Of a DNA stretch of 64,000 bases, positions 1,619 to 19,599 are shown one piece after another (positions within the stretch are counted from its first letter, which is position 1; each line of letters opens with the position of its first letter). A program made the translations under genes and the position numbers. The notes below the pieces were generated by a model. That model saw only the letters and a list, made by a program, of their open reading frames with translations. It searched no databases and was not told the origin of the DNA. Origin of the DNA: Gammaproteobacteria bacterium. Lineage in GTDB: Bacteria > Pseudomonadota > Gammaproteobacteria > UBA4575. The DNA lies in NCBI GenBank assembly GCA_965203725.1, contig CBDBDH010000001.1:644686-708685 (forward strand), in the 5' to 3' direction.

Positions 1619-2001
1619 ACCGGCCTGCCGTGGCCTGTGCGGATCGTCCTCCCGGTCCGCACAGGGTGCGGGCACACACTGAGGGAGTTTTAGGCCATGT
1701 GAATCAGGGGTACTGGTGTACCCCTGACGTGCTGCCTTTGATCTGCCAGCGTGTCTCTCAATGCTCGTGCACGACCAGGAAGAGGCACAGAAGACAGGAT
1801 AGGATTCCCCAGGCTGGATTCTTGATGACTCGATCCGCTTTGCCGTTATAAGGAAGCATGTCAGCGTCCTGCAAGGCTTTTCCCGGTAATTTGTACAAGG
1901 CAGGATGGCCAGCTTCATGTCTGCGATCATGTCTCACTGTCACATGGCCTTCCTGTTTTCGAACTCCAAAGTTAGGGGCTTATATACGAAAGTTACCAAG
2001 A

Positions 2002-2298
2002 CTAATTGTCACGTCTAGAGTGCCACCAAGTAGTGGCACTTTTTGTCCCAGTAAGAACCCCTGTAATTACAAGCCAAGAAAATGCCGCCCAGAAAAATGT
2101 ATAAATTACAAAGCCAGAATATTTCATCCCTAAACAAATATTCATTATCTGCGACTCAGGTAAGTTAACATTGCCAGGCAGTTTGATAAGATCACCACAT
2201 TCATATACCCATATAGTGCCACTGCTCAAATCAGCACCACCAGCTACTGTAACGCCGATCATAAAGGAAATTAACAAAACTGGAATTTGTTTTTGCAT
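2002..2298 (-). CDS. Small hypothetical protein with N-terminal signal-peptide/TM segment
   Basis: ORF in low-GC stretch; N-terminus MQKQIPVLLISFMIGVTVAGG is hydrophobic. No family recognised. Confidence 0.3.
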   Translation of the reverse strand: MQKQIPVLLISFMIGVTVAGGADLSSGTIWVYECGDLIKLPGNVNLPESQIMNICLGMKYSGFVIYTFFWAAFSWLVITGVLTGTKSATTWWHSRRDN

Positions 2299-2419
2299 GG
2301 CTTCAAATAATGCAACATCATCAAAATAGGCTTACTTGGCTTTTCGCTTAACGGGCTTATCCATTTAAGAGAGTGCCATAGACTGTAACAGACCATCCCA
2401 TACAGAAAAAAGGCCGCGA

Positions 2420-2776
2420 TTATGGTACGTCAAGATATCCCTTGCAATGCTTTGTAACATGGCCTGCCATTTCTGAAAGTTGTTCAAGCATTTCACTAAG
2501 GGTTAGCCCCTTTGCTGGCTGCCATGTATACATCCTGCCTGCTGCTACTGTAAGCATTTCAGAAGCTGCCAAGCAATAACCTCTTATCGAAAAATTTACC
2601 GCTGCTGCAATTTTTGCATGGCTCCCAACAGTGCGTCCGGCTCTTGCTTTTCCTGTTTCACCTATAGTTCTAAAATAATCATTCATCCATGCTTCATCCG
2701 GGTTAGGCGGGTTTTCATTGGCATGACTGGATACGGCCAAGGCAAGCAATACAATTCCTAGTGTCCTGATAGTCAC
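2420..2776 (-). CDS. Hypothetical secreted protein
   Basis: N-terminal signal peptide (MTIRTLGIVLLALAVSSHA); 118 aa; low-GC region. Confidence 0.5.
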   Translation of the reverse strand: MTIRTLGIVLLALAVSSHANENPPNPDEAWMNDYFRTIGETGKARAGRTVGSHAKIAAAVNFSIRGYCLAASEMLTVAAGRMYTWQPAKGLTLSEMLEQLSEMAGHVTKHCKGYLDVP

Positions 2777-2879
2777 AATTCCTCCCCTTTTAATGTTTAT
2801 GTGTCTAACTAGGGTAACACTACAAAGGAGGCAATAAAGAGCTTGCTATAACCGAGCTTCACACAATGGAGAATGACAA

Positions 2880-3218
2880 ATGAACCGAATTACAAAGAGC
2901 ATTGCAGCAGCAGTATTTTTTGCATGTATCACACATACCCCGGCAAACACTCCAAAAATGAGTTTCGAAAAGGCAACAGAATTAGCCATAAATGATCCCG
3001 TATTTCTCGAACAATATTTGATGATTGGCAAGAGCCCGTGCGATGTTGATTTGCTTTTTGTTCTACTCAAAAAAGACTGGTATATCATTTGCCAAGGCTG
3101 CAGGGATTTTGAGCATATGGCAAAAGATTACTTGCCGCCTGAATTGATGCAGAAACTAAAATCCCCTGGACCTTGGTTATTCCAGGATTTGACTTATCAA
3201 GCGGGTATTTGTCCGTGA
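2880..3218 (+). CDS. Hypothetical secreted protein
   Basis: Signal peptide-like N-terminus (AAAVFFACITHTPA); RBS GGAGAATGACAAATG upstream; low GC. Confidence 0.5.
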   Translation: MNRITKSIAAAVFFACITHTPANTPKMSFEKATELAINDPVFLEQYLMIGKSPCDVDLLFVLLKKDWYIICQGCRDFEHMAKDYLPPELMQKLKSPGPWLFQDLTYQAGICP

Positions 3219-3955: not shown

Positions 3956-4762
3956 TCACCCCACCATGCCAACAGCACTTGAGGATTGTGGCTTGCATCG
4001 ATCCAGTTTCTTTTTCGCTATACGCTCAATGCGACTTGCGACCTTCGCAACCGTGTCGAGTGAGACGTTGGCCGGTAAATGACCGTTGGGCAGGTACCTG
4101 GATATATAGCCTGCGCTGCCCCCCTGAAGTCCGAAACGGGTCGTTACGACATAGGCGACTGCTTCCGCTTCAATCTCTTTTGTACTTGTGTCCAAGTAAG
4201 CACGGCTTGGCCACCATTGATCCTGATCGCAGCCCAGATGACCCAAAAAGATGTGAGCGAGCTCATGACACAACACACCGAAACGGCTTGGTGGATCCAG
4301 ACCCTCATGAATCACAATATGCATCTTCCCGTCAGTCAGACGGTCATCGAACGTCGCAAATCCGCCATGGGTCGGTGAAAGTTCCTTGAAATCAACCCGA
4401 ACGCTGTCATGGCGGGCAGCATTGTTTACCATCCTCTTAAGCCATTTAGGGTTCCAATCCCCCTCAAAGTGTGCAAATCTTTTCAGCTCTTTGGGTAAGG
4501 TGTCGCCCTCAGTCTGATCCAGGTCATACACCAGAATGACCGGATGCATCGGGGCCAGAATGACCATAGGTCGGGTATCTTCCTTGAGCGTGTACCCGAA
4601 CCGGGCATACCAGGTCTTTTGAGTAGCAAAGAAACTGCAACTTGGGTTCTGGATTTTCACCAGCATGTTGTTGAAAGGGGAATACTGGCGAAAGCGGGCC
4701 ATGAAGCTGACCATCTCCTGAAACTTCTCTGTAGACCGATACACCCCACTGGCTCGCAGCAA
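3956..4762 (-). CDS. ArdC-like antirestriction-family protein (ssDNA-binding N-domain plus HExxH zincin peptidase domain); N-terminus possibly disrupted
   Basis: N-part YSPFNNMLVKIQ...ATQKTWYARFGYTLKEDTRPMVILAP matches the ArdC_N/DUF1738 pattern (YsGiNvllL...TfkQak.lGg.VrKGEk). C-part has HELAHIFLGH metal-binding motif. ORF track start is a TTG. Confidence 0.5.
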   Translation of the reverse strand: MLRASGVYRSTEKFQEMVSFMARFRQYSPFNNMLVKIQNPSCSFFATQKTWYARFGYTLKEDTRPMVILAPMHPVILVYDLDQTEGDTLPKELKRFAHFEGDWNPKWLKRMVNNAARHDSVRVDFKELSPTHGGFATFDDRLTDGKMHIVIHEGLDPPSRFGVLCHELAHIFLGHLGCDQDQWWPSRAYLDTSTKEIEAEAVAYVVTTRFGLQGGSAGYISRYLPNGHLPANVSLDTVAKVASRIERIAKKKLDRCKPQSSSAVGMVG

Positions 4763-5890: not shown

Positions 5891-6118
5891 CTAACTCCTT
5901 TCAGTGCCCGCAGCAGATCCGGTATAGGGAGTGACCTCGAGTTGCGCATCGGACAGTGCGCCACTGGTAATGACTTCCTCAGGCAGGTTCGGCACGTAAT
6001 CGATATCGGGCGGATCCACTGACGCCATGGCGATGAATTCAACAAGGTCTACCGGGTGCGGCTTGGCGCCCTTGACGCTGATCTTGGGGTGGTATTTCGA
6101 GAACGCGGTACCTTCCAC
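5891..6118 (-). CDS. Small ORF upstream of copy 1 (75 aa; shares MEGTAF.KY start and EVITSGALSDA(Q/K)LE segment with an equivalent ORF upstream of copy 2)
   Basis: ORF stop abuts/overlaps start of main gene; the equivalent ORF in unit 2 (about 6528-6790, inside the 224-aa track ORF) has the same conserved ends but the middle is in a different frame. Confidence 0.3.
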   Translation of the reverse strand: MEGTAFSKYHPKISVKGAKPHPVDLVEFIAMASVDPPDIDYVPNLPEEVITSGALSDAQLEVTPYTGSAAGTERS

Positions 6119-6546: not shown

Positions 6547-6805
6547 TTCGTGTACCCTCCAGTGCCCGCAGCAGGTCCGGCGCAGGTAATAGCCTCAAGC
6601 TTCGCATCGGACAGAGCACCGCTGGTGATTACCTCCCTTGGACAGGTTCGGCGCATAATCGGTGTCAGGCGGTTGTACCGAGGCCATGGCTGTGGATTCG
6701 ACCAAGTTGGCGGGGGGTGCCTTTGACCTTGATCGAGGAGCCGGTATTTTGCAAATGCCGTGCCTTCTTCCTCTTTCACACCTTCAGACTTGCTTTTCTG
6801 CGTTT

Positions 6806-7426: not shown

Positions 7427-7723
7427 TTACGGAATCCCCAAAAAGCAGGTTCGTTGTGCGGCCGGGCTTCCCTGGATCATGTTGCAGGCATTGATCGCAC
7501 GCTGGCGGTGGGCCTGGCTGGCCGAGGTCGCCTGGCGGGCATTCCTGCGCTCCTGGCGCTCAATGCGGTCCATCGATCGCTGCAGGGCACCGCTGGAATA
7601 GCTGCTGGCGTAGGGAGCGCCGCCCCGGTACGACTGGTACGGGCCTTCGTCCGCCCATGCCAGGTGAATAAATGCCATCAGGATGGAGGCGATCAGCACT
7701 GAAAGATATCTACGCTCGTACAC
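7427..7723 (-). CDS. Hypothetical small secreted protein
   Basis: Hydrophobic signal-like N-terminus (LSVLIASILMAFIHLAWA); follows the S74 fragment gene with a 14-nt overlap. Confidence 0.35.
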   Translation of the reverse strand: MYERRYLSVLIASILMAFIHLAWADEGPYQSYRGGAPYASSYSSGALQRSMDRIERQERRNARQATSASQAHRQRAINACNMIQGSPAAQRTCFLGIP

Positions 7724-8078
7724 GGTTTGTCTCCTTCCGCTTTCTGCGGTGTCCTATTTTTGAATAATCCACGACCTTGATACCGCTGGGCAGGACCTTC
7801 ACGGCATCAGGCTTCACTTTCTCGACATCCTGGGCCATCACGCCCATTTCGGTGGTCGGGTGTCCCTTGAACTTGTAGGTATACACGGCCAGGCCGTCCC
7901 GGGTCTCCCCCACCTTCTTGATGTCTTTCTTCACGCGCCGGTCACTCATGGCATAGGCCATGTAGCCAGCGACGCCCAACCCGCCCAGGTTCAGGAGGTT
8001 GTTGAAGCTGCTCTGCTTGGCGTTGGAACGGGCCTGTGCGACCCCGACCTCTCCGGCCCCAAGGGCGCTCGCCCCCAC
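7710..8078 (-). CDS. Peptidase S74 (intramolecular chaperone auto-processing) domain protein; probably the C-terminal remnant of a phage tail-fibre/spike gene
   Basis: AYAMSDRRVKKDIKKVGETRDGLAVYTYKFKGHPTTEMGVMAQDVEKVKPDAV matches the S74 domain signature (SDxRxKxxI ... Y.yk ... G.iAQeve...P.aV). Only 122 aa; no large upstream fibre ORF. Confidence 0.6.
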   Translation of the reverse strand: MGASALGAGEVGVAQARSNAKQSSFNNLLNLGGLGVAGYMAYAMSDRRVKKDIKKVGETRDGLAVYTYKFKGHPTTEMGVMAQDVEKVKPDAVKVLPSGIKVVDYSKIGHRRKRKETNRVRA

Positions 8079-8399
8079 GCCGAGCTGGTGGGCACCCCGG
8101 GCCGCAAAATGATTTCATACCGGATTCCTCCAGATTGCTGCAACTTCCGGCCAAGGTAAGGTGCCGGGCCATTGCAAACATTACTCAGTACGAGGAAGTC
8201 CCTGCCTATTCATCTTAAGTACAAGGAGCGACCCTGTACCGGTAATAAGACTGTCGTATTCAGCAGGTAACCCGACTTAGCGGGACTACTGAGATAATGT
8301 CTGCAGGTGCTAATATAGCAAGGTGGTTATAGATTCATCAACATTATGTGGTCATCTGGCACAGGTTCCAGACGAGGTTAAATTTAGGAAATTAAGGAA

Positions 8400-8531
8400 A
8401 TGCTTATTTTGATGAGGCGATCTGGAGAAAAAATCAGGATCGGTGACGAGATCAAAGTGGAGATACTGGGGATTCAGGGCAATCACGTACGGATTGGCAC
8501 TCACGCGCCCCGACATGTGAAAGTCCATTGA
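8400..8531 (+). CDS. CsrA/RsmA-family RNA-binding protein homologue, C-terminally truncated (43 aa)
   Basis: Translation [43 protein letters not shown] aligns residue-for-residue with E. coli CsrA 1-43 ([43 protein letters not shown]). Ends before the R44 equivalent. GGA-rich leader AGGAAATTAAGGAAATG. Below the track's size cut-off. Confidence 0.65.
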
Positions 8532-8673
8532 GCGAAGGTACACCAGAAATCCATGAAGAACAATCAATGTGAGCGATAAAGAAACTACAGCTCAAGCATT
8601 GGACGTGTTTGCTCATATCTCTTTGATTCAAAAAATTCTGCTAGCTAATTGCGAAGTTAAAACACGGGCTTGA

Positions 8674-8865
8674 GTGACTGACTGCCAGAAAACGAATGGG
8701 CAGAAAATTCACGTTGGCCTTGAAGATGGCAGAAGAATTAAGATCTGGCTGCCTGGACTCCGAACCCCTGTTGCAGAAAATCCGGAATTATCTCTAGTGA
8801 ACTCCAGCAGGCCAACTGCAATTCGGACATCAGTTCAGCACCTAAAGGCTCTTGGAGGGCAGTAG
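8674..8865 (+). CDS. Hypothetical protein (63 aa)
   Basis: ORF only; no motif. Confidence 0.2.
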   Translation: MTDCQKTNGQKIHVGLEDGRRIKIWLPGLRTPVAENPELSLVNSSRPTAIRTSVQHLKALGGQ

Positions 8866-9093
8866 CTTCGGATGCACCCGCGATAGCACCCTCAGGCCTG
8901 ACTTCGCTAATTGGAGATCTAATAATGAAGACTCCATTCTCTCATGGCTCCTCACACAACTTAATCGACTCTGTGTGTGATTTTTCGACACCATTCATTA
9001 CCGGGTAAAAACTGGTGTCCTAGGTGGCTAGAATCTGCCCAGTCAGACAAATGTGTCGTTGCGGCCTCCGACAACAAAAAAGGAGAACTTGAA

Positions 9094-9351
9094 ATGGTGG
9101 AGAACCAAGAGACCATAACTATGAGCAAGATTTTGGCGGAGTTTCCCGACCTTGAGATAATAGAGACCTTAGACGTTCGACACTTTCGCGAGGTATCCGA
9201 TAATGGAAAGACTTTTCAGTTTGTAGTAGTACATGGAAGTTGTCTGAATCCTTCTTCTTCGCCAAAGGGGTCTTTTGCTCTTGCCCTGGAGCTTCATCAT
9301 CTGGTGAATTTTGCGAGGGATATTCTTCGCAATTATGAGGATTACGTATAG
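9094..9351 (+). CDS. Hypothetical protein (85 aa)
   Basis: Strong RBS AAAAAAGGAGAACTTGAAATG; in frame with track ORF 8977-9351. Confidence 0.4.
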   Translation: MVENQETITMSKILAEFPDLEIIETLDVRHFREVSDNGKTFQFVVVHGSCLNPSSSPKGSFALALELHHLVNFARDILRNYEDYV

Positions 9352-9915: not shown

Positions 9916-10195
9916 CGCACGCCCACGCCGGCCCTGCTTGCAGGCCCTGATCGGTGGCGGCCGTGAATGGCTGTGAACGTCTGTGAATGGCCTCGGAAAC
10001 CTATTTGGTTGCTCCCATATCAACCGAACAGATATTCTAACTGACTGATATTATTGGATATAGATCAATTGCGGCAACAAAGTTGCCCCTACAGTTGCCC
10101 CTAACTACCGATTGAAAACCGCAATCACAGACCAAAGCCGGAAAGGGTTCGAGCGGGTAAGTAAGCCACTGCATCCAAGTTGGCATTTTTCATTT

Positions 10196-10549
10196 TCATG
10201 TGATCGGCCATTCCCAGTCATGACCCAGACACTGGTAGCGGATAATCCCGCAGATCCTGTCCGCAGACATGCCGAAATGCTGTCCCAATTGCCTCCAGCT
10301 CAGCCCTGCCCTGCGCAGGCGTACTGCTTCCGTTACCTGCTCGTGGCTAAGCGAATGGCTTGCAGGCCCATACATGGACCTGTACATACTGAGACCCAGA
10401 CAGCCTGCACGGTACAACTGTCCACGCACTACCGCTGGGCTGACGCCATGCCGCCTGGCTACCTGTTTGACAATTTGGCCTTCCTCGTAAATCTGGCGCT
10501 TCCATTCGTCTACAGGGTAATGATCGGCTCTGCCCATACGTGCCCCCAC
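10196..10549 (-). CDS. Small DNA-binding protein with two resolvase-type (HTH_7-like) helix-turn-helix motifs
   Basis: Segments QIVKQVARRHGVSPAVVRGQLYR and LSHEQVTEAVRLRRAGLSWRQLGQHFGMSADRICGIIR resemble recombinase/resolvase C-terminal HTH. The overlapping opposite-strand ORF 10112-10567 has no features and is considered spurious. Confidence 0.45.
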   Translation of the reverse strand: MGARMGRADHYPVDEWKRQIYEEGQIVKQVARRHGVSPAVVRGQLYRAGCLGLSMYRSMYGPASHSLSHEQVTEAVRLRRAGLSWRQLGQHFGMSADRICGIIRYQCLGHDWEWPIT

Positions 10550-10804
10550 TGGTTAGTAAGATCATGATCGTGCGGCCTTGGGCTGGTTCAAGAATAAACC
10601 GGCCTGATCCGCTCCGTCTTGGTCAAATCACTATGCCGAAATTCAGGGATTTATCAAGCCTGCAGAACCGAAAATAACTCCCGGTATAAACACGATCGAC
10701 GGCGGGCATCCATCGCTTGCCCAAAATGCCGGACAAGGCTCCAGTCGGGCAATGCCGGGAAGTCCTGGCCCTGAATGAGACTGCTGAAGGCTCACTTTGG
10801 GCTG

Positions 10805-11270
10805 CCCAGTCTCAACCCCGCCCCCGCAGTCTCAAAATCCTTTGGAGTAGTCTCACAAAAATGGCAAATCGTCTCACTGCTATCTCACAATAACAGTAAT
10901 ATATTCATGTAGTTACGCAGTTTCCGGCAATTTTTGCCCCGATAATTCTCCAGAAATTGAACGCATTTAATTTCCGCGCAGAGATATCTATGTGTAGTTG
11001 CCTTGGAAGACCCTCTTAACCGGCGTATTTGAGGGTATAGGTGATGACAGACTTTCTTGCTCGCACGCACGTATATATGTGTATATACCACATTGTCCTA
11101 ATAATAATAATAAATATCTTATAAGTATTTATATTATATAGGATTATGCATGAGATAATGGTGAGACTAAATCGCTATTTTGTGAGACTAAATCGCTATT
11201 TCCTGAGACTGGGAACACTTTTTCAACCCACATTGAGACAGATTCTTCACGATTGAGACCGTGAAAAATG
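10805..11270. promoter_or_regulatory. AT-rich core flanked by phased 6-mer iteron-like repeats (GTCTCA x4-5 on left, TGAGAC x5 on right, about 22-bp spacing) including two 21-bp perfect direct repeats
   Basis: Left: ...cagtctcaaaatcc...agtctcacaaaaatggcaaatcgtctcactgctatctcaca. Right: gtgagactaaatcgctatttt gtgagactaaatcgctatttc ctgagactggg...attgagacag...gattgagaccg. Centre has (TAA)n/AT-rich sequence. Lies in the 1-kb divergent gap between the HTH gene and the RadC-led operon. Confidence 0.55.
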
Positions 11271-11587
11271 TCACTAACGCCTGATCCTGATCGGTTCACG
11301 ATGCCGTTTCAGCTGGACCTCGCGTCGGCTGAGATTACCCCTGGCTATGTATCCAAGACACGCCCTGCGGCCGTGAAAAAGCTTCGGCTGCCCAAATTTG
11401 AGGGTTCAGACGGCCCCCAGCCCGACATGCTGACGCGCTGCTGCCGGCAATGATCTTGGCTGACTGACGCCTCGATCACTCGCATGACGATGCAGCTCTT
11501 TTCCTAAATCTCGATCCGCAAGAGAGGGTTTACATATAGGACATAATGTCCTATACTATGCAATACTAACCATGGGTCTGATCCCAC

Positions 11588-12076
11588 TTGAATGAGCAAG
11601 GAGAAACTCATATGAAAAAACTCTCAAGCATGACGAGCAAGCAAAAGGACGAGACCGTCCAGCTTGCCATCAAGATTCTCTCTTACCGACATCGCGCAGG
11701 CCAAACCCTTGGCAGTCCCGATGAAACCTGCAACTACCTTTGCCTTCGGATGGCCGAATACCGCAATGAAGTGTTTGGCGCACTGTACCTAGACAACCTT
11801 TGCCGCATCATCGCGATCAAGGAGCTTTTCCAAGGCACAGTCAACTCGGCATCCGTGCATCCCCGTGTCGTGGTGCAAGAGGCCATGGAAGCGAATGCGG
11901 CAGCCGTCGTGTTCTTCCATAACCATCCTTCGGGAGTCGCCGAACCATCCCGAGCCGATGAAATGATTACCCGCAGACTCAAGGAAGCCTTGGCATTGGT
12001 CGATGTTCGAGTACTCGACCATTTTGTCGTGAGTGCGGGCGAGTCCGTTTCATTCGCGGAACGGGGATTGCTCTGA
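11588..12076 (+). CDS. RadC-like JAB/MPN-domain protein (UPF0758 family)
   Basis: Motif FFHNHPSGVAEPSRADEMITRRL (ExnHxHPSG...PSxxD JAMM signature); likely true start at MKKLSSM (about 11612). Confidence 0.75.
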   Translation: MNEQGETHMKKLSSMTSKQKDETVQLAIKILSYRHRAGQTLGSPDETCNYLCLRMAEYRNEVFGALYLDNLCRIIAIKELFQGTVNSASVHPRVVVQEAMEANAAAVVFFHNHPSGVAEPSRADEMITRRLKEALALVDVRVLDHFVVSAGESVSFAERGLL

Positions 12077-12157
12077 GACTTCCCAAATGTGCAGCTTCCC
12101 CGCGAGGCTGCGCACTTGGGAGGCCACAGGGGCTGACCGCAACGAGAAGGAGACGAC

Positions 12158-12595
12158 ATGCCAGAAGAGTACACAAGCGAGTTTCACGAGCAGCTATGCG
12201 CGACCTGCGCCGAGGCGGACCCGGATCAGCCGATCACGACCGCCCGCGAGATCGTCGCTGCTGCCCGCCAGATGAGCTACACCGACGAGGAGATTCACTG
12301 GAATGCCGGGGACGTGTTCAAGAACGTGTCCCTGACCGCACAGGAGGCGCGAGTCTGCCTGTACGTGAAGAACATGACCAAGGGGGGCGCTGCCCCCCTG
12401 TCCGATGAACACCGCGACCGTGCGGACGTCATCGCCCGTGAGAACGTGGAATACACCACCGATGACAACGGTATCACGACCGGGTACGTGGCATGGGGGG
12501 CCGGAGGCTTCGAGGCTGCGGGCAGCAGCGAGGCCGAAGTGCTCAACCACCTTGCCGAACAGATCGCCATCGAACTGAGAGACACAGGGATATGA
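12158..12595 (+). CDS. Hypothetical protein (145 aa), first cassette-like gene after RadC-like gene
   Basis: RBS GAGAAGGAGACGACATG; no family recognised. Confidence 0.55.
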   Translation: MPEEYTSEFHEQLCATCAEADPDQPITTAREIVAAARQMSYTDEEIHWNAGDVFKNVSLTAQEARVCLYVKNMTKGGAAPLSDEHRDRADVIARENVEYTTDDNGITTGYVAWGAGGFEAAGSSEAEVLNHLAEQIAIELRDTGI

Positions 12596-12735
12596 GACAG
12601 GAACTCAAGCATGCCCTGATCCAGTTCGGGGGCGTGGTGTTTGCGATCTGCATCCACCTCGCGCCCATCGCGCTGATCTGGCTGTTCACGGGCGAATTGC
12701 CGCCCATCTTCCAATCACAGGAGACACAACCATGA
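12591..12735 (+). CDS. Small hydrophobic single-TM peptide (48 aa), translationally coupled on both sides
   Basis: MRQELKHALIQFGGVVFAICIHLAPIALIWLFTGELPPIFQSQETQP. Its ATG overlaps the preceding stop (ATGA) and its TGA overlaps the next ATG (ATGA). Confidence 0.35.
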
Positions 12736-13193
12736 CCACCGAATACAAAACCCTGCACGCAGGGACCATGACCTTTGACAATGTCGAACCGGCCCGCCTC
12801 GTCGAGTTCAAGTGCGACACCGACGCTGTGAGCTTCAGTGCCGTGGACGATACCGGGACCATCGAGAAGATCGAAAAGGAGATCCGCCTGATGGTCTCCA
12901 GCGCCCTGTGCGGTGCCAAGGACAGCGGAGCCTTCGACATGGCATTCCAGCGCGGCTTCTGGGGCACCGTCGAGGTGTTCGTGACATGGCGCGTCATGCC
13001 GTCCACCGACGAGGCGACGCCCGCCCCTGAAGAGGACCACCAACTCCAGCAACAGGTCTGTGAGGATCTGGAGAAGGTACTTGAAGTGCTTGAGTTCTTT
13101 ATCCAGCACGACATGACCCTGCGTCTGGTTCCGGCACAGGCCATCGTCTGGAAAAACGCGATCGAGACCGCGCACGACGTCCTGTTCAGCTAG
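12732..13193 (+). CDS. Hypothetical protein (153 aa)
   Basis: Conserved start context ACAGGAGACACAACCATGACC. Confidence 0.55.
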   Translation: MTTEYKTLHAGTMTFDNVEPARLVEFKCDTDAVSFSAVDDTGTIEKIEKEIRLMVSSALCGAKDSGAFDMAFQRGFWGTVEVFVTWRVMPSTDEATPAPEEDHQLQQQVCEDLEKVLEVLEFFIQHDMTLRLVPAQAIVWKNAIETAHDVLFS

Positions 13194-13198
13194 GCGGA

Positions 13199-13255
13199 TG
13201 CGGATATGCCCCTTCTCACGAGGGGGCATTCCGGATCGGCATCGGCCTATCCATA
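13199..13255 (+). repeat. Leader hairpin, type I (degenerate copy)
   Basis: cggatatgcccc ttctcacga gggggcattccg upstream of the 13277 gene. Confidence 0.5.
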
Positions 13256-13276
13256 ACGAAGACAGGAGACAGAACC

Positions 13277-13702
13277 ATGACCTATGAATTCACACCCGAC
13301 CAGCTTGCATGGATTGAGGCGCTGGAGTCCGGCAAGTACAAGCAGGGCACCGGCGTCCTGAAACAAAACGATCAGGACGGCACAGCATGCTACTGCTGTC
13401 TCGGACTGGCCTGCGAAATACTCGACCCCGCCGGCTTCACCCCGCAAGCCCAGACCATCCCGCTCAAGGATGGCAGCAAACGCGACGCCTATCCCTATGT
13501 CGGGCTCGCCAGCTTCCTCGATGAAAGCATGGTGACACGCCTGCAACTGAACGGCACCGCCGGGGACTGCCTGGACACCGACGGCAAGCAGGTCGAGGGC
13601 CGCGACCTGGCCCACCTGAACGACAACGGCAGCAGCTTCGCTGAAATCGCGCAGCTGCTGCGCCAGCGCCCGGAACGCTACTTCGACAAGGTCGTCAGCT
13701 AG
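13277..13702 (+). CDS. Hypothetical protein (141 aa)
   Basis: Start context ACAGGAGACAGAACCATGACC preceded by imperfect leader hairpin. Confidence 0.55.
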   Translation: MTYEFTPDQLAWIEALESGKYKQGTGVLKQNDQDGTACYCCLGLACEILDPAGFTPQAQTIPLKDGSKRDAYPYVGLASFLDESMVTRLQLNGTAGDCLDTDGKQVEGRDLAHLNDNGSSFAEIAQLLRQRPERYFDKVVS

Positions 13703-13709
13703 AAGCTGT

Positions 13710-13762
13710 CCGGATATGCCTGTCGCAAGGCAGGCATATCCGGCTGGACTTCAGCCGATAAC
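13710..13762 (+). repeat. Leader element, type I: perfect palindrome CCGGATATGCCTG-N8-CAGGCATATCCGG plus GGCTG-gactt-CAGCC-GATAAC
   Basis: Read directly; identical copy at 14139-14191, near-identical at 14653-14709, related at 15966-16017. Confidence 0.8.
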
Positions 13763-13780
13763 AAGACAGGAGACACAACC

Positions 13781-14131
13781 ATGACCACTTACTACCCCCC
13801 TCAACCGAGCATCCAGCACTCCCCATGGGGACGGGTGCAGAACGAGATCACGCTGGCCGAAGGCATCACCTTCGTCGATACCGCAAGCCATGGCGGGATC
13901 AAGCTTTCCGCCGAGCGCGTCGCCCAGATGCCCCGAGGCGCACGCAAGACGTCTGGCTGGTACGAGGAAGACTGTGAGTCTCTCTGGCCCCTGAGCAAGT
14001 TCTGGGACGAGCTTGACCACGCCGCTCTGTTCGGGGCTGACGAGAAGGCCATCCAGAAGGCCCATGACTCGATTCAGGCAGGACTTGACCACTACGACAA
14101 CGACTTCTCGCGGGTACGAATGCACACCTAG
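13781..14131 (+). CDS. Hypothetical protein (116 aa)
   Basis: Preceded by type-I leader hairpin and ACAGGAGACACAACCATGACC. Confidence 0.55.
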   Translation: MTTYYPPQPSIQHSPWGRVQNEITLAEGITFVDTASHGGIKLSAERVAQMPRGARKTSGWYEEDCESLWPLSKFWDELDHAALFGADEKAIQKAHDSIQAGLDHYDNDFSRVRMHT

Positions 14132-14138
14132 AGACTAC

Positions 14139-14191
14139 CCGGATATGCCTGTCGCAAGGCAGGCATATCCGGCTGGACTTCAGCCGATAAC
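14139..14191 (+). repeat. Leader element, type I (identical copy)
   Basis: ccggatatgcctgtcgcaaggcaggcatatccggctggacttcagccgataac. Confidence 0.8.
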
Positions 14192-14211
14192 TACACAGGA
14201 GATAGAAAACC

Positions 14212-14646
14212 ATGACAGACGCAAGAGACATTACGGAGCGAGGACAAGCCATTGACTGGGTCGAGTCCACGCTGGAAAGCAATGCCCACTACGAACACGG
14301 CAGCGAGTACCTGGAGAACTTCATCAAGCAGGTCGTGACAGGCATCAAGGCGCCTATGCACGACACCAACACGTTGCAGGCGATCGTCGAGGCCCTGGAC
14401 GATCCGAAGGTCGAGGCCAGTGAAATCGTATCCGAGCACAGCTGGGTGTTGCTGGCCGAAGCCCTCGACAACTACTCGGTGGACCAGCTCATCAATGACG
14501 CGCTGGAGAAAGGCGTGGACGCCTACCGGGCGCACCATGTGTGCAGCGCCGACGTCAGTGAGCAGATGGGCACGGAGCTCATGGGGCACGGGCGCACGGA
14601 CCTGGTCGCCGGCCGCGAGGTCAACATGCCGCGGGAGGACGACTGA
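14212..14646 (+). CDS. Hypothetical acidic protein (144 aa)
   Basis: Preceded by type-I leader hairpin and ACAGGAGATAGAAAACCATGACA. Confidence 0.55.
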   Translation: MTDARDITERGQAIDWVESTLESNAHYEHGSEYLENFIKQVVTGIKAPMHDTNTLQAIVEALDDPKVEASEIVSEHSWVLLAEALDNYSVDQLINDALEKGVDAYRAHHVCSADVSEQMGTELMGHGRTDLVAGREVNMPREDD

Positions 14647-14652
14647 GGCTGT

Positions 14653-14709
14653 CCGGCGATGCCTGTGCTGCAAGGGGCAGGCATCCCCGGCTGGACTTCA
14701 GCCGATACC
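14653..14709 (+). repeat. Leader element, type I (variant copy)
   Basis: ccggcgatgcctgtgctgcaaggggcaggcatccccggctggacttcagccgatacc. Confidence 0.75.
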
Positions 14710-14728
14710 AAGACAAGGAGACACCCTT

Positions 14729-14980
14729 ATGAAAATGAAAACGACCAAGATCGCCGGCGGGTTCCAGACCGTCATTGAACCGGACCGGCCCGCAGCTGCG
14801 GACGGCCAGCGCTACACGCTGCTGTACGAGACTGACACCGGATGCGCCGAGGCCGATACGCAGGCCCGCGGCATCAGTGAGGCCATCCGCAACTTTCGCC
14901 GCGACGTGCCCGATGAGTACCACGGCGCAGACGCCTATATCACGGACGAGGACGGCTGCGAATACCCCATGGACTGGTAA
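14729..14980 (+). CDS. Hypothetical protein (83 aa)
   Basis: In frame within track ORF 14420-14980; preceded by type-I hairpin and AAGGAGACACCCTTATG. Confidence 0.5.
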   Translation: MKMKTTKIAGGFQTVIEPDRPAAADGQRYTLLYETDTGCAEADTQARGISEAIRNFRRDVPDEYHGADAYITDEDGCEYPMDW

Positions 14981-15004
14981 CCCTTAACGAGACAGGAGTA
15001 AGCC

Positions 15005-15436
15005 ATGAATAAAGAGAGACTGATGGAGCTGGCAGACCACATCGAGGCCGTGGGATACCAGCGGATCGTCAAGCGCAAGGGCACCAACCCTGAAGCGCAG
15101 TTCGACATGCGCCAATGGGTGCACGAGTGCGGCGCACCTGGCTGCATCGCGGGCCATGGCGTGAACCACTTCGAGCCCGACACCTATCAGGAGTGCCTGA
15201 AGCTGCAGGAAGGTCCGGACGAGGACGTGAATGCCATGCAGACGGCGATATCCAGGGAAGCCCAGAGGATCCTGGACCTGGACTACCTGACCGCATGCCG
15301 CCTGTTCAATCCGCATGCCATTGATAACGTGTACGACAGCGGACCCGATAAGGCGGCGGATGTGCTGCGCAAGCTGGCCGCCGGCCAGGGCGTCACCTGG
15401 TTTTCCCCCAGGGTGCGGGCGGAATTCGGAGTTTGA
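15005..15436 (+). CDS. Hypothetical protein (143 aa)
   Basis: RBS CAGGAGTAAGCCATG. Confidence 0.55.
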   Translation: MNKERLMELADHIEAVGYQRIVKRKGTNPEAQFDMRQWVHECGAPGCIAGHGVNHFEPDTYQECLKLQEGPDEDVNAMQTAISREAQRILDLDYLTACRLFNPHAIDNVYDSGPDKAADVLRKLAAGQGVTWFSPRVRAEFGV

Positions 15437-15438
15437 CC

Positions 15439-15750
15439 ATGGCCCGCCGGAAATACACGATCAAGTCCAGCCCGAACATCCGCATGTTCGAGGTGCAGAT
15501 GCGCGACCGCTCGGAGCGGTTCGTGCTGGCCCGCATCGGCCACGCTAAGGTGCGGATCTGCACGCTCGGCATGTGGACGAAGCTTTACCACGACCGGCGC
15601 TTCTTCGAGCGCGTGGTGGTGCGCGAGCTCGAGCTGGACGCCGACATGCGGGCGCGGGTGCGCAAGGCCATGAGCCCGCACATGCGCCGGCACAAACCCA
15701 CCAGATTCACGGACCAGGTCATTGCGACCGTACAGGAGAACGCCGCATGA
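15439..15750 (+). CDS. Hypothetical basic protein (103 aa)
   Basis: ATG 3 nt after previous stop; in frame with track ORF 15433-15750. Confidence 0.5.
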   Translation: MARRKYTIKSSPNIRMFEVQMRDRSERFVLARIGHAKVRICTLGMWTKLYHDRRFFERVVVRELELDADMRARVRKAMSPHMRRHKPTRFTDQVIATVQENAA

Positions 15751-15959
15751 ACGACATCGACGCACGGATCACGCTCAGCAGCTCGAAATGCCGCATCGAG
15801 CCGGTATCGGATACCGCCAGGGACTGGCTGGAACAGCACGTGTTCCGCATGACCACCGGCTACGAGTTCGGCCCCGTGCAGGGCAAGCGCGTACACGACG
15901 ACATGCTCAAAGTCGGCATGACCCTGCATATCGTGGAGGTGACCCACCACTTCGAGTGA
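15747..15959 (+). CDS. Hypothetical protein (70 aa)
   Basis: ATGA start/stop overlap with preceding gene; ACAGGAGAACGCCGCATGA; in frame with track ORF 15573-15959. Confidence 0.45.
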   Translation: MNDIDARITLSSSKCRIEPVSDTARDWLEQHVFRMTTGYEFGPVQGKRVHDDMLKVGMTLHIVEVTHHFE

Positions 15960-15965
15960 GGCGCA

Positions 15966-16017
15966 CCGGCATAGCCTGTGCAGGCTGCAGGCTATCCCGG
16001 CCAGCTTCGGCCGAAAC
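15966..16017 (+). repeat. Leader element, type I-related
   Basis: ccggcatagcctgtgcaggctgcaggctatcccggccagcttcggccgaaac. Confidence 0.6.
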
Positions 16018-16045
16018 TGAGAAACCCAAAATACAGGAGAAAACC

Positions 16046-16486
16046 ATGACCAATACATCCACCACCCACCCGCAGCTCGAATCCGACTTCGGGCCCGTCA
16101 TTCACACGTATACACGCGCACAGGCCATCGAGGACGGTGTGCTCATCGATGTGTCCAAAACCGCACGAGAGGCCGGATTTACCCTGCCTGTGGCCATAAC
16201 CGCGGCTGCCTATGCCGACACCGTGGAATGGACGAAAGCGGATAGTGAGCGGCAACGCGTCTACCAAGACCAGAGCGGGCGCCTTTGGGATGCCCTTTAC
16301 ATGGCGGTTTTTGCAATACGAGCGCGAAGCGCCAGACCAAACGATACCACGATGGAATACGAGTTTTACCGAGTGCCGTGTGGCGGCAGGGCCACCAAGC
16401 CGCGTCGAGTCACTCTCAAGCTGGTGATCGGTCCGGGCGATGATGCAGAGCCGGTCGTCACAATCATGATGCCGGACGAGGACTGA
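16046..16486 (+). CDS. Hypothetical protein (146 aa)
   Basis: Preceded by leader hairpin and ACAGGAGAAAACCATGACC; in frame with track ORF 15722-16486. Confidence 0.55.
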   Translation: MTNTSTTHPQLESDFGPVIHTYTRAQAIEDGVLIDVSKTAREAGFTLPVAITAAAYADTVEWTKADSERQRVYQDQSGRLWDALYMAVFAIRARSARPNDTTMEYEFYRVPCGGRATKPRRVTLKLVIGPGDDAEPVVTIMMPDED

Positions 16487-16499
16487 CCGGGGCAGCCAG

Positions 16500-16545
16500 G
16501 GGCACAGGGATCGTGCCCGCCGTCTGCGGGTGTGTTTGCCCGTAC
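16500..16545 (+). repeat. Leader element, type II: GGGCACAGGGATCGTGCCC hairpin (GGA in loop) plus CGGGTGTGTTTGCCCG
   Basis: Read directly; homologous copy at 17669-17716. Confidence 0.7.
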
Positions 16546-16593
16546 CGATGAAGGGGGAACCCAGAAACGGCAACCAAAGAAGGAGACCAAACC

Positions 16594-16965
16594 ATGACCA
16601 CAGAAGACAAGTATTTCGACCTGCAGACGACCGGCGTGGGCTACCTGCGCAAGGTGGACGACCACGAGCCGCCGACGATCACCATCGCCGCCCTTCGCGG
16701 CAGAACCGGAGATGTCCAGTACACACACTTCGAGTGCGGGGTCGTGGGCAGCAAGGCACAGGCCACCGTTAAGGAGCTCCGGGGAGCCGTTGACGACGGA
16801 CTGAGAGTCCTGATCGGCTTCACGCTCAGCGATCTGCATCTGGAGCTCAGCACCTATCAGGGCGGCGAGCGCGACGGCCAGACCAAGGCTCGGCTGAAAG
16901 GACGCTTGCTGCGAATTTCCTATACGAAGGTGGAAGGACAACCATTCATCCCGAACGCCGCATAA
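16594..16965 (+). CDS. DUF3577-like protein (family typical of ICE/genomic-island cargo)
   Basis: YFDLQTTGVGYLRKV...ITIAALRG...YTHFECGVVG...KARLKGRLL resembles the DUF3577 signature as I recall it (YF.LhtrGiGYlnR...aL.G...Y..FdcrV.G). Preceded by type-II GGA-loop hairpin and AAGGAGACCAAACCATGACC. Confidence 0.55.
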   Translation: MTTEDKYFDLQTTGVGYLRKVDDHEPPTITIAALRGRTGDVQYTHFECGVVGSKAQATVKELRGAVDDGLRVLIGFTLSDLHLELSTYQGGERDGQTKARLKGRLLRISYTKVEGQPFIPNAA

Positions 16966-17035
16966 AGCAGCAGGAAACGGCCCTCTGGGATTCCAGGGGG
17001 CCCGGCACCAATCACAACACAGGAGAACCAAAACC

Positions 17036-17398
17036 ATGAGAACGATGAGCACACGGCTCGACGACCACAAAACCAGTGGCATGGTAAACACCACGCCATC
17101 TGACTGGTACACGAGTCACCTGACACACCAGCCCACCATAACCACGCACCTGAGCGCGGACGAGAAGGGCGTGGCGTTCAAGACCCTGCGGAACAACGAC
17201 GTGATCGAGGATGGCTACATTGCACTCGATGAGGTGAGGACGGCCGGCAAGCGCCGCAACCTGATCCGCCGCATGACCCGCGAGAGCAACCAGTTGCTGA
17301 TCGACGGTCCGGAATCCGAGCTAAAGCTGTTGGGCATCATGCAATCGGCCAAGAGCTGCCAGATCGGACTGAAGCGCCAACATGTAGTAGTGGTATAG
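17036..17398 (+). CDS. Hypothetical protein (120 aa)
   Basis: Preceded by hairpin GGCCCTCTGGGATTCCAGGGGGCC and ACAGGAGAACCAAAACCATG. Confidence 0.5.
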   Translation: MRTMSTRLDDHKTSGMVNTTPSDWYTSHLTHQPTITTHLSADEKGVAFKTLRNNDVIEDGYIALDEVRTAGKRRNLIRRMTRESNQLLIDGPESELKLLGIMQSAKSCQIGLKRQHVVVV

Positions 17399-17480
17399 GC
17401 CCAACGGGCCGGGCATCGCCGAGCCCCAGCTCAAACAGATTGCCCGGCCCCGAAGGCCATCAAACCTAATGGAGGTAAAC

Positions 17481-17648
17481 ATGCCCGATGACATCTATAC
17501 CCGAAACGGCTACCGCGACCGCCGCGACTACCTAGGCACCCTGGCTGACCAGTATGGCGTAGACTTCCATACCGTGGCGGCCATGGCCGAGATCCTGGGC
17601 AAGGACGAGGACTTTGATGGCTTGGTCACAGAACTGGAGAACTTCTAG
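17481..17648 (+). CDS. Small hypothetical protein (55 aa)
   Basis: RBS AATGGAGGTAAACATG; acidic peptide MPDDIYTRNGYRDRRDYLGTLADQYGVDFHTVAAMAEILGKDEDFDGLVTELENF. Confidence 0.35.
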   Translation: MPDDIYTRNGYRDRRDYLGTLADQYGVDFHTVAAMAEILGKDEDFDGLVTELENF

Positions 17649-17668
17649 GGCAGTCTTTGAACGGGACA

Positions 17669-17716
17669 CGGGGCACAGGGAAGTGCCCCGGCTATCTACG
17701 GGTGTGTTACCCGTAC
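17669..17716 (+). repeat. Leader element, type II: GGGGCACAGGGAAGTGCCCC plus ACGGGTGTGTTACCCGT
   Basis: Loop CACAGGGAAGUG resembles the high-affinity CsrA site RUACARGGAUGU. Confidence 0.7.
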
Positions 17717-18161
17717 TGATATAGGTGAAAGCCAGAAACAGGTAACGTAACGGAAGCCAACCATGAATGTGAATGACGACTCCACCAGCATAGAGCGGGT
17801 GAAGCTCTGCAAGGCGGTGAATTTCGCCACAAAGGAGGCACTCCACGTTATCCTGAATGACGAGTGCCACAAACCTTGGAAGGTGCCAAAATGGCTAAAT
17901 CATGCACATTAGCTAAAAAACGGCTTACGAGGATGGCCTGTAAGCGACGATCTCGACCTTGGCCGTATCCTAGTACCCCTGAAATCCGCATGGTTTTTGT
18001 ACAATTGGATGAGCGCAGGAACAGGGAATCCGATGCACACAGCCCTAACGTTCGGGCCTTTTTCCGGCCCTCAGTGGATCCCCATGGAAGCCATGTGCAA
18101 TGCTGTAACGCCGCTCGGGGAGTATGATGAGATCACACCACGAGCTTTAGGAATCTTCAGT

Positions 18162-18374
18162 ATGAAATCAACATCACGTATAAGGCCCTTGGACAGGGAA
18201 GAACTGAAGCGAATCCGAAAACGCACGGGGAAGTCCCTGGCCGAATTTGCTCCCCTGCTGGGCATGACTGGCCAAGGTGCCCGCCGTACTGTCCGCCGCT
18301 TTGAATCGGGAAAAGAACTTCCGCGTGATTCTGTTCTGGAGCGGTATCACGCGCTGCGTGAAGGAAAATTGTAA
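18162..18374 (+). CDS. Small HTH-type protein, paralogue 1 (70 aa)
   Basis: LDREELKRIRKRTGKSLAEFAPLLGMTGQGARRTVRRFESGKELPRDSVLERYHALREGKL, about 45 % identical to the next gene. Confidence 0.45.
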   Translation: MKSTSRIRPLDREELKRIRKRTGKSLAEFAPLLGMTGQGARRTVRRFESGKELPRDSVLERYHALREGKL

Positions 18375-18407
18375 CTGCGCGAGCTGTCCGAATTATCTGG
18401 AGTACAC

Positions 18408-18656
18408 ATGAAATCAGAACCAGACATTGAGCCCCTGACTACAGAGGAACTCCGCCAAATCAGAGAGGATTCAGGATTAACTAAAGCAGAGCTTGCCTGC
18501 CTGTTCGGTCTGTCGGACAGACGCGTCATCCGTCGCTATGAATCGGAATTGGGAGATTTCTGCCCGTCACGACCTGTGCAGAGACTGTACCATCTGTTGC
18601 GCGAAGGGAAACTGAATCATCTGGTGCGAAAAGTGAAGAAACTGCGCAAGGCGTAA
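18408..18656 (+). CDS. Small HTH-type protein, paralogue 2 (82 aa)
   Basis: LTTEELRQIREDSGLTKAELACLFGLSDRRVIRRYESELGDFCPSRPVQRLYHLLREGKL. Confidence 0.5.
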   Translation: MKSEPDIEPLTTEELRQIREDSGLTKAELACLFGLSDRRVIRRYESELGDFCPSRPVQRLYHLLREGKLNHLVRKVKKLRKA

Positions 18657-19599
18657 ATGGTAGGAACATGAGAAATGGAGATGATGCACCGTTTCTCGAT
18701 CAGGGTGATTGTGCCGTACAGCCACAGATTGACGCACAAATGATGAGTGACCTCGCCAAATTCTTTCATCCTGAATAATCTGCGTTGTACTGGCAGATCC
18801 GGTCTTGTCCATGAGTTGAAGACGCTGAGGTCTCCAACCTCAGACTTGCAGCATCCGAGATGTATGGTCAACTCAACGAGCAGCTAGTCATATCGGACTA
18901 GTCCAGACCTCGCTGCAGACGCAACGGATCATGTTGACAACCTTTTCCCGTTTCTAGTGCATGGATGCGTAACTCAGTGCCTTATCTGAAAAGTATCTGG
19001 TCCGCACGGAATTGGTTCGAACTAACCAAAATTTCATCAAGGAGAGTGGGGTTTTATGAAACGCTTTGAGCGGGACATAATTTTGCAACTGAACATACAT
19101 TTGCTGCAATACATCCGCTAATTCGAGTCCGAGATTAATGATCTTCGCTTGCAGGTGGATCGCATGCAGCGGGCACCCAGCCCACATTTCGATAACGGGG
19201 CAAGGCTGTAAATGGAAAACAGTCTGATAACCAAGCATGATACCAAGGACCTGGGCCTCAAGGCTGGTGAAAAAGGAGAGAATCCAGGCTGTATCCACGC
19301 TCGAATCATGCGTATGCTAGGGTATTCTGTGGAACGTCCTGATACCTCGTTGGATAGTTGACTGAAGACAGCCATAGCACTCACAGGGGCAACAATGGGG
19401 GCAACTGAGCAAACCACACAATAGTAAATTCATATATATTAGGTAGTTATTAACGCTATTCGGTGGTTACCGGGCCCATCAAATCCGTCACAAAATACCG
19501 CACGGCGGGCGCGCAGCGCACCATGGGCGCGACGGAATTCCGTTGGAGGCGACCGCCGGGCATTGTAGAGTAACAGCCTTTGATTTGCAGGTTGCGAGG

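Follow-up and report, generated by a model that had tools for sequence, protein, structure and literature searches.

Short direct repeats that keep phase with the DNA helix beside an AT-rich block are already known from iteron-type replication origins, from plasmid centromeres, and from operator arrays. For the origins, the obvious comparison set is that of the theta plasmids (R6K gamma, P1 oriR, pPS10, and RK2 oriV) together with the Staphylococcus aureus pathogenicity islands (SaPI) and phage-inducible chromosomal islands (PICI); for the centromeres it is R1 parC/ParR, pBtoxis tubC/TubR, and R388 stbDRs/StbA; and for the operators it is the stoperators. Here, we describe a locus in a 64-kb stretch of a gammaproteobacterial contig (CBDBDH010000001.1; 64,000 nucleotides [nt], hereafter “the window,” whose positions are used as coordinates throughout). 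In it, oppositely oriented sets of the hexamer TGAGAC are arranged about a spacer and an AT-rich palindrome, next to a gene for a 113-aa protein with two tandem helix-turn-helix (HTH) domains. This module contains a real, selectively conserved non-coding element, most likely a protein-binding control site.

It is worth setting out at the start how the locus resembles, and departs from, the systems just listed. With the origins it shares direct repeats about two helical turns apart (21–22 nt) that abut an AT block, an adjacent DNA-binding gene, and a second repeat set in the other orientation. It differs in that the neighboring gene encodes a 113-aa tandem-HTH protein rather than a Rep_3, TrfA, pi, or helicase-type initiator, in that DnaA boxes are absent, in that each repeat has only a 6-nt core, and in that the locus is chromosomal, within an integrative island. 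Likewise, the R1, pBtoxis, and R388 sites have two sets of about five phased repeats around an AT-rich or promoter segment and a small DNA-binding gene alongside, and the R388 site stands at the head of an establishment or leading region; their period, however, is 11–12 nt against 21 nt here, where the arms are inverted and 264 nt apart, no partner NTPase was found, and the gene for the candidate binder is not always adjacent.

The stoperators offer asymmetric short sites on one helical face, a monomeric multi-domain HTH reader, and an orientation tied to the direction of transcription. They are dispersed over a genome, though, whereas the present sites are packed into two arrays of five to six, the promoter is a putative one, and sequence similarity to the repressor is nil. 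A further likeness is to Cbp1 of the Sulfolobales, a small tandem-HTH protein that binds the regularly spaced direct repeats of CRISPR DNA; the organisms and the type of repeat differ. Its family (NCBIfam NF040595) is the only named one that aligns across the two domains of our HTH protein (residues 13–105), but at 20.6 bits against a cut-off of 140 bits the protein is not a member. New here are the two mirror-image sets of oriented hexamers at spacings of 11-21-21 around a nearly invariant, melt-prone palindrome, the link to an uncharacterized and very rare tandem-HTH family, and the position at the head of a small-gene operon in a family of integrative islands.

Anatomy of the TGAGAC Arrays

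The module and its immediate surroundings comprise the following features.

10196–10537, minus strand: HTH gene, whose 113-aa product has two predicted HTH domains of three helices each and is the candidate array-binding protein
10625–10658, minus strand: conserved 34-nt block with a promoter-like TTGATA-16-CATAGT (10657–10630) for the HTH gene, from a promoter scan
10776–10781, plus strand: single TGAGAC, facing the other way from the left-arm sites
10809–10887, minus strand: left arm, with GTCTCA four times (10809–14, 10829–34, 10850–55, and 10871–76) and ATCTCA at 10882–87
10888–11099, no strand assigned: variable spacer of ~210 nt, 37–48% GC
11100–11147, no strand assigned: AT block AATAATAATAATAAATATCTTATAAGTATTTATATTATATAGG, imperfectly palindromic, its 17-nt arms being 11101–17 and 11121–37
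11151–11259, plus strand: right arm of six oriented sites, TGAGAT at 11151 and TGAGAC at 11162, 11183, 11204, 11234, and 11254
11261–11268, plus strand: conserved tail GTGAAAAA, directly after the last site of the right arm

TGAGAC and its complement GTCTCA occur 27 times in the window, where ~29 copies are expected, and are thus not in excess overall. Ten of these 27 copies are packed into 10776–11259; in 200 dinucleotide-preserving shuffles the maximum per 500 bp was 4 copies (mean 2.5), and TGAGAC ranks first for clustering among all 2080 hexamer classes in the window. The opposed TGAGAC and GTCTCA sets reported in the initial annotation are therefore where it placed them and far beyond chance.

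Read on the minus strand from the center outward, the left arm runs TGAGAT (10887) and then TGAGAC (10876, 10855, 10834, and 10814), at spacings of 11-21-21-20; the right arm is spaced at 11-21-21-30-20. No interval departs by more than 1 nt from an integral number of helical turns, which makes the phase 21 nt, or two turns, and not the 22 bp first proposed. Two 21-nt units at 11161–11181 and 11182–11202 had been described as perfect repeats 22 bp apart; the units exist, but they abut, start to start at 21 nt, and are identical at 20 of 21 positions. The right arm is directed toward the plus-strand operon that begins with RadC, and the left arm toward the minus-strand HTH gene. The two arms are a true extended inverted repeat, complementary at 75% over 40 nt and separated by 263 nt. 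Over 23 sites from two loci, the information content resides only in the hexamer and in a T-tract just upstream of each site.

An AT-rich core was also part of the initial annotation. The AT-rich stretch is indeed there, but it is not central: the AT block (11100–11147; 17% GC, 46 nt) abuts the right arm, with 4 nt to its first site, and the remaining ~210 nt between the arms are the spacer of 37–48% GC. By computed stability, 11102–11147 is the weakest 46-mer duplex in the 64 kb, at −40.3 kcal/mol (next −46.1, median −69). The claim that this kilobase is non-coding holds as well, in that 10538–11611 contains no supported open reading frame (ORF).

No second copy of the array was found elsewhere in the window, and exact scans of metagenome and viral contigs for the array pattern, and of viral and genome contigs for a 24-mer of the AT block, gave no match. 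A DNA similarity search with 10100–12100 returned RadC matches only from plasmids and nothing from phages. In Rfam no family was recovered, the sole match being sub-threshold and inside radC, and we found no report of TGAGAC iterons in the literature.

Conservation and Selection

The most informative relative is L001, a metagenomic contig of 3.2 kb (SRA run SRR23238833) whose HTH protein is 68% identical to that of the window. It keeps the plan of the window, from HTH gene, 34-nt promoter block, isolated TGAGAC, and inverted arm through spacer and AT block to the right arm and GTGAAAAA. Between the two HTH genes the proportion of synonymous differences (pS) is 0.69 and the synonymous divergence (dS) is ~1.9, which is saturated; the ratio of nonsynonymous to synonymous divergence (dN/dS) is 0.13. 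Because synonymous sites are saturated, unconstrained DNA should be randomized between window and L001, and forced alignment of non-conserved segments puts this background at 46–52% identity.

Against such a background, the AT block is identical at 43 of 44 positions, and its sole change falls within the loop of the palindrome. Identity is 75% for the right arm and 82% for the 34-nt promoter block, and blastn aligns 11100–11268 at 81% identity, above the HTH gene itself. The left arm keeps its motif positions and inner spacing with an overall identity of just 56%, and the spacer, at 52%, is at background. In L001 the left arm is spaced at 10-21-30 and the right arm at 11-21-21-31-19; the inner ends of the arms are 246 nt apart (264 nt in the window), and the isolated TGAGAC stands in the same orientation 43 nt, as opposed to 33 nt, to the left of the left arm. 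The AT block, the right arm, and the spacing have thus been kept despite saturated dS; this is purifying selection on the DNA and not on a coding sequence. A 61-aa ORF at 11268–11453 (or with a start at 11301) was considered as a Cro-like gene and rejected: it is 54% identical to L001, with mismatches spread equally across codon positions and without a ribosome-binding site.

Homology between the window and L001 extends from ~9996 on the left to ~11290 on the right, and the flanks are unrelated; the conserved unit is therefore a module of ~1.3 kb made up of the HTH gene and its cis-sites, linked in two independent contexts. There is no RadC within 620 nt of the L001 module. L001 also has a promoter-like TTCACG-18-TATAAT (10 of 12 matches) directed into the AT block and on through the right arm. 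In the window, three tandem 10-nt copies of CTGTGAA(T/C)G (9963–9992) lie immediately beyond the point where homology ends on the left.

The HTH Protein

The start of the HTH gene was set by alignment with its homologues. In Pfam the protein matches HTH_23, with weak matches to HTH of the resolvase or transposase type (HTH_Tnp_1, HTH_38, and HTH_7), and its predicted fold consists of two tandem three-helix HTH units. The fold neighbors, among them LuxR and sigma region 4, R2R3 Myb, and a cluster-A mycobacteriophage repressor, are generic HTH domains and do not include RepE or pi; similarly, Pfam, PHROGs, and NCBIfam gave no Rep-family match.

Close relatives are few, with just two among 5.8 billion clustered proteins. 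One relative, P0001, is 71% identical and is encoded on a 1.88-Mb contig. No homologues were found in plasmid, phage, GTDB-representative, and IMG/VR collections, and tblastn against plasmids and phages gave no match. A search with the family alignment gave 47 pattern matches in genome contigs, none of them homologous, and none in viral contigs. A full HMMER scan of 1.84 billion representatives recovered a small family of 113–130 aa with a C-terminal RYQCxxRGWEWPI, along with many unrelated multi-HTH repeat proteins. The HTH protein is an intact, full-length member of a small, very rare, and uncharacterized family that is under purifying selection. The gene, earlier labeled as of the resolvase-HTH type, is not the remnant of a resolvase or transposase.

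Related Islands

Members of the family are encoded in the window, in L001, and in two islands that we refer to as L055 and L057; those at 46–50% identity stand at the ends of long operons of the same island type. The RadC gene of L055 is 94% identical in nucleotides to that of the window, and its operon is laid out as in L057. In the leader of L055 (8820–8960) an AT block, ATAAATATCTAATATATTTATTAATAAT, is followed by six copies of TGTGCAT at spacings of 10-21-21-21-21 and then by GTAAAAA, all pointing toward the operon, and the sub-motif ATAAATATCT is common to the AT blocks of the window and L055. By analogy, this leader is the same architecture as the right arm of the window, built on another hexamer. 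It lies ~550 nt upstream of the DUF3085-RadC operon, whose last gene, 10.6 kb downstream of the array, is the HTH homologue (47% identity). L055 has no inverted second arm. Downstream of its array, at 9099–9199, L055 has 9-nt tandem repeats of ACGCAGAAT.

L057, a complete sister island, reads, in order, a tyrosine integrase, two small genes, a 1.2-kb leader, and an operon DUF3085...DUF6573...RadC...HTH, with AlpA on the opposite strand; its HTH gene is ~7 kb from the start of the operon. The leader (1936–3181) is strongly C/A-rich on one strand and carries repeats of the CCAAAATTCC type at 24 nt, without an AT block, and is thus a different repeat solution in the same position. The promoter of the L057 operon has a 20-nt tandem pair, TAATGTTGAAT. 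On another contig, L005 (4.2 kb; HTH protein 50% identical), there is no array in the 290 nt upstream of the HTH gene.

More distant members, at 25–32% identity, are found on phage-like contigs after a gene for a PDDEXK nuclease. The divergent early regions of three of them (L002–L004) hold inverted repeat sets around TA-rich centers, 2.7–8 kb from the HTH gene, which are suggestive but not evidence on the locus in the window. Among the repeats of these contigs are 42-nt arms, 86% complementary and 217 nt apart, at 6650–6960 of L002, and copies of GGGGTCGAAG at an 11-nt period that face inverted copies at 1410–1770 of L003. L003 also has an uncalled 1.2-kb stretch (8100–9310) with ~33 copies of a 36-nt period (GAGCGAGCCG ... 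GACnACAGCG ...), directly upstream of the genes for the PDDEXK_1 nuclease and the distant HTH-family member; the period is too short for CRISPR.

Neighboring Genes and Element Boundaries

On the plus strand, the kilobase is followed by a run of small genes led by RadC, among them DUF7007, DUF6573, and DUF3577. Two features stand at its head.

11529–11557, plus strand: promoter-like site TTTACA-17-TATACT for RadC, overlapping a perfect palindrome TATAGGACAT-A-ATGTCCTATA at 11535–11555
11612–12076, plus strand: RadC gene (JAB domain; Pfam RadC, 2.9e-42), first gene of the long operon

The RadC promoter and its palindromic operator are a control element separate from the arrays. The palindrome is close to the IncP KorC operator, TAGGGCATAATGCCCTA. 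Homologues of RadC and DUF6573 occur on conjugative plasmids; no comparable array was found in L006, the leader that precedes a DUF6573 operon on a PromA plasmid. A DUF3577 gene, yef, sits in the gonococcal type IV secretion system island (PMC3334931).

The gaps between the genes of the operon (12600–17100; e.g., 13696–13778, 14125–14207, and 14676–14715) contain a repeated unit of ~80 nt. It consists of a perfect 13–14-bp hairpin, CCGGATATGCCTG-TCGCAA-GGCAGGCATATCCGG, then CTGGACTTCAGCCGATAAC, and then a near-identical ribosome site and start, ACAGGAGACAnAACCATGACC, copies of which fall at 12717, 13262, 13766, 16031, 16579, and 17008. Such units are also present between the genes of L055, and it is because of them that the operon has the look of a cassette array, as which it had first been annotated.

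The low-GC island to which all of this belongs extends over ~2–19.5 kb in a host of ~65% GC. A double motif may mark the limits of a smaller element within it.

10081–10101, plus strand: left copy, AGTTGCCCC-TAC-AGTTGCCCC, ~95 nt past the stop codon of the HTH gene
19386–19406, minus strand: inverted right copy, AGTTGCCCC-CATT-GTTGCCCC; GC content jumps to host-like values 60 nt away

The pattern AGTTGCCCC-n3/4-GTTGCCCC has 2 matches in the window at up to 3 mismatches, where 0.05 are expected; they are inverted and 9.3 kb apart. L001 has the double motif at 1807–1827, ~110 nt after the HTH stop, in the same relative place. This suggests that the double motifs bound an element of ~9.4 kb (10.0–19.47 kb) without a recombinase of its own, with the HTH-array module 0.8–1.2 kb inside the left end; the motifs may be arm-type recombinase sites or terminal repeats. 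An outward extension of the double motif into a terminal inverted repeat of 85 nt was considered and rejected, as only the 21–22-nt motif is significant and L001 homology passes the proposed terminus to 9996. At neither end of the element did we find a flanking direct repeat that could be an attachment core or a target duplication. In viral contigs the double-motif pattern gave 48 loci, all of them unrelated matches to the pattern only. Among the ORFs scanned at 2–19.5 kb we found no Rep, Par, relaxase, integrase, or transposase domain.

To the left of the module lie fragments of mobile genes, namely a 75-aa piece of an AAA_34 helicase, a Peptidase_S74 tail-fiber chaperone domain, and an M78/IrrE peptidase (5891–6118, 7710–8078, and 3956–4762, respectively, all on the minus strand), so that the module stands beside older, decayed mobile DNA.

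What Might the Arrays Do?

The reading that we put first, tentatively and as somewhat short of probable, is that the region is an oriented operator or nucleoprotein array that gates outward transcription from the AT-rich core, with the HTH protein as the probable binder. One-face phasing, T-tracts, oriented asymmetric hexamers, and strong selection on non-coding DNA together point to an array bound by protein as double-stranded DNA, wrapped or filament-like, and in this respect the initial view of phased, oriented repeats of a protein-binding kind is supported. Its expectation that the repeats would be conserved in related islands is borne out by L001 and, by analogy, by L055.

A small DNA-binding protein, most probably the adjacent 113-aa tandem-HTH protein, would bind the TGAGAY hexamers. 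Since the sites of each arm share a single helical face (at intervals of 1, 2, 2, 3, and 2 turns) and are each preceded by a T-tract, binding should be cooperative, with ~110 bp wrapped or stiffened. The right arm, beginning 4 nt past the AT block, faces the RadC-led operon and the left arm the HTH gene; once bound, the arrays would stand in the way of RNA polymerase on its path out of the AT-rich core, by blockage or occlusion, or would bring the arms together in a loop. The outcome would be negative feedback on the establishment operon of the island and on the regulator itself. The site anatomy, the selection on the DNA, the linkage with the HTH gene, and the analogous array at the head of a homologous operon are shown here; the role of the HTH protein as binder, a promoter within or beside the AT block, and a repressive effect are inferred. 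Three aspects of the loci fit: the gene and the sites are linked in two contexts; an inverted arm is seen in the window and L001, where the HTH gene is divergent and lies alongside, but not in L055, which agrees with a role of the left arm in control of that gene; and L055, with an array at the head of the operon and the HTH homologue as its last gene, has the layout expected of end-of-operon negative feedback.

Several observations weigh against this proposal. A scan for consensus sigma-70 promoters calls none within the AT block or at its edges, either in the window or in L055, although in L001 the promoter-like site described above reads into the block. The candidate promoters of the HTH gene (10630–10657) and RadC (11529–11557) are outside the arrays, 150 nt to the left of the left arm and 270 nt beyond the right arm; the arrays thus lie between the two and on neither promoter, and RadC has its own palindromic operator. 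The predicted recognition helices are nearly the same in the window and L055 (VVRxxLYR and RICxIxRYQC), whereas the hexamers are TGAGAC and TGTGCAT; near-identical helices facing hexamers that differ at 3 of 6 positions amount to no covariation of protein and site, although with two motif classes only this is a weak test. L057 pairs an HTH homologue with a different kind of repeat and no AT block, L005 has no array in the stretch upstream of its HTH gene described above, and in L001 nothing conserved lies downstream of the right arm as an obvious target of regulation. It is for some of these reasons that the locus is doubtful as the master switch of the RadC operon: RadC has a promoter and operator of its own, and the L001 module stands without RadC within 620 nt.

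Of the other functions, an iteron-type replication origin survives best, and we regard it as unlikely. The right arm would supply the iterons, unwinding would take place at the AT block, and the sites of the left arm would serve for control or handcuffing, with the HTH protein serving as an unusually small origin-binding protein or the initiator supplied in trans. The geometry is that of the textbook, as six direct repeats at ~21 nt directly abut the least stable duplex in 64 kb, a block with next to no sequence change. Like a replicon cassette, the module is compact, places a DNA-binding gene beside the repeats, and has unrelated flanks, and the plan of an AT block and six repeats recurs in L055. 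Two comparisons also count for an origin: in those of the SaPI type, two sets of hexamer iterons flank AT-rich DNA, and TGAGRG is the core common to classical iterons. On the other hand, the ORFs scanned at 11.6–19.3 kb, of which the largest is 254 aa, include no Rep, primase, or helicase, and the HTH protein lacks both a Rep-family match and a fold neighbor like RepE or pi. The search for DnaA boxes that had been proposed for this locus found none (TTATCCACA, up to 1 mismatch) in 10550–11590, nor does that interval contain the IHF consensus WATCAANNNNTTR; these are common, not universal, features of origins. Finally, the HTH gene of L055 and L057 is 7–10 kb away at the end of the operon, and the locus is chromosomal, in a decayed island. 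Of the suggested origin of vegetative replication (oriV), then, the two-turn iterons and the adjacent least-stable AT block stand, and a Rep-type initiator and DnaA boxes are missing.

A broader version, to which we likewise give a low probability, is that the ~1.3-kb module (9996–11290) is a self-contained maintenance unit in which the tandem-HTH protein, unrelated to known Rep or Par proteins, organizes an iteron-type origin or a segregation site. Its parts would be the melt-prone AT palindrome, the six hexamers on one face, and the mirror-image control arm.

More improbable is a centromere-like site for positioning or segregation, of the ParR-parC, TubR-tubC, or StbA-stbDR kind, where the HTH protein, spread over the repeats, would serve to tether the excised element or to position it. 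Two sets of 5–6 phased direct repeats around a promoter-like AT region, with a small DNA-binding gene adjacent, speak for it, as do two known cases: R1 parC has 5 + 5 repeats flanking a promoter, and R388 StbA is an HTH protein that binds without an ATPase partner to 5 + 5 repeats at the head of the leading region. Against it, no ParA, ParM, or TubZ-type gene was found among the ORFs scanned at 2–19.5 kb, although systems of the StbA type do without such a partner NTPase. Moreover, the two sets are not direct but inverted, with 264 nt between them, their period is 21 and not 11 nt, and in L055 and L057 the HTH gene lies elsewhere in the island.

We attach a similarly small probability to a DNA-processing site for a protein supplied in trans, be it an origin of transfer (oriT) with accessory sites, a set of recombinase arm-type sites, a packaging site, or a single-strand hairpin. 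The flanking operon consists of gene types carried by conjugative elements, related islands have a tyrosine integrase and AlpA, and inverted double motifs bound 10081–19406. In addition, the arms pair when the DNA is folded as a single strand, in both the minimum free energy and the centroid structure (z = −3.4); L055 has no second arm, however, so the hairpin is not a conserved feature. The window ORFs scanned include no relaxase, integrase, or terminase (a relaxase might act in trans), and the sole nic-like ATCCTG (11283–88) is not kept in L001 or L055. By geometric reasoning, leading-region genes should face oriT if the transferred strand templates early single-strand transcription, but the operon points away. 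The arrays are also 0.8–1.2 kb inside the putative end of the element and not at the end.

Degenerate terminal repeats of an insertion sequence or transposon, with the HTH ORF as the N-terminal remnant of a transposase, are effectively refuted: the weak Pfam matches to HTH_Tnp_1, HTH_38, and HTH_7 would fit, but the ORF is full length for its 113–130-aa family, with the conserved C-terminal RYQCxxRGWEWPI and a dN/dS of 0.13, there is no adjacent DDE or recombinase remnant, no transposase, and no further copy of the array in the window, the HTH gene lies outside the inverted pair, and the DNA between the arms is conserved, so that with arms facing each other across the AT block the center is part of the unit and not “outside” DNA.

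Significance

Islands carrying RadC, DUF3085, DUF6573, DUF7007, and DUF3577 are common cargo of conjugative and integrative elements. This locus offers a sharply defined and constrained cis-element, a candidate binder, and an analogue in a sister island with a different hexamer. It is, therefore, a system well suited to asking how a monomer with two HTH domains reads oriented hexamers on one face of the helix, and whether such arrays gate establishment genes after transfer or act as an origin or centromere without Rep. Should the arrays prove to be only the operator of a repressor, they would be a modest addition to what is known of plasmid and island regulation; if the maintenance unit is the true reading, they would represent a minimal replicon or centromere of a new kind on integrative islands.

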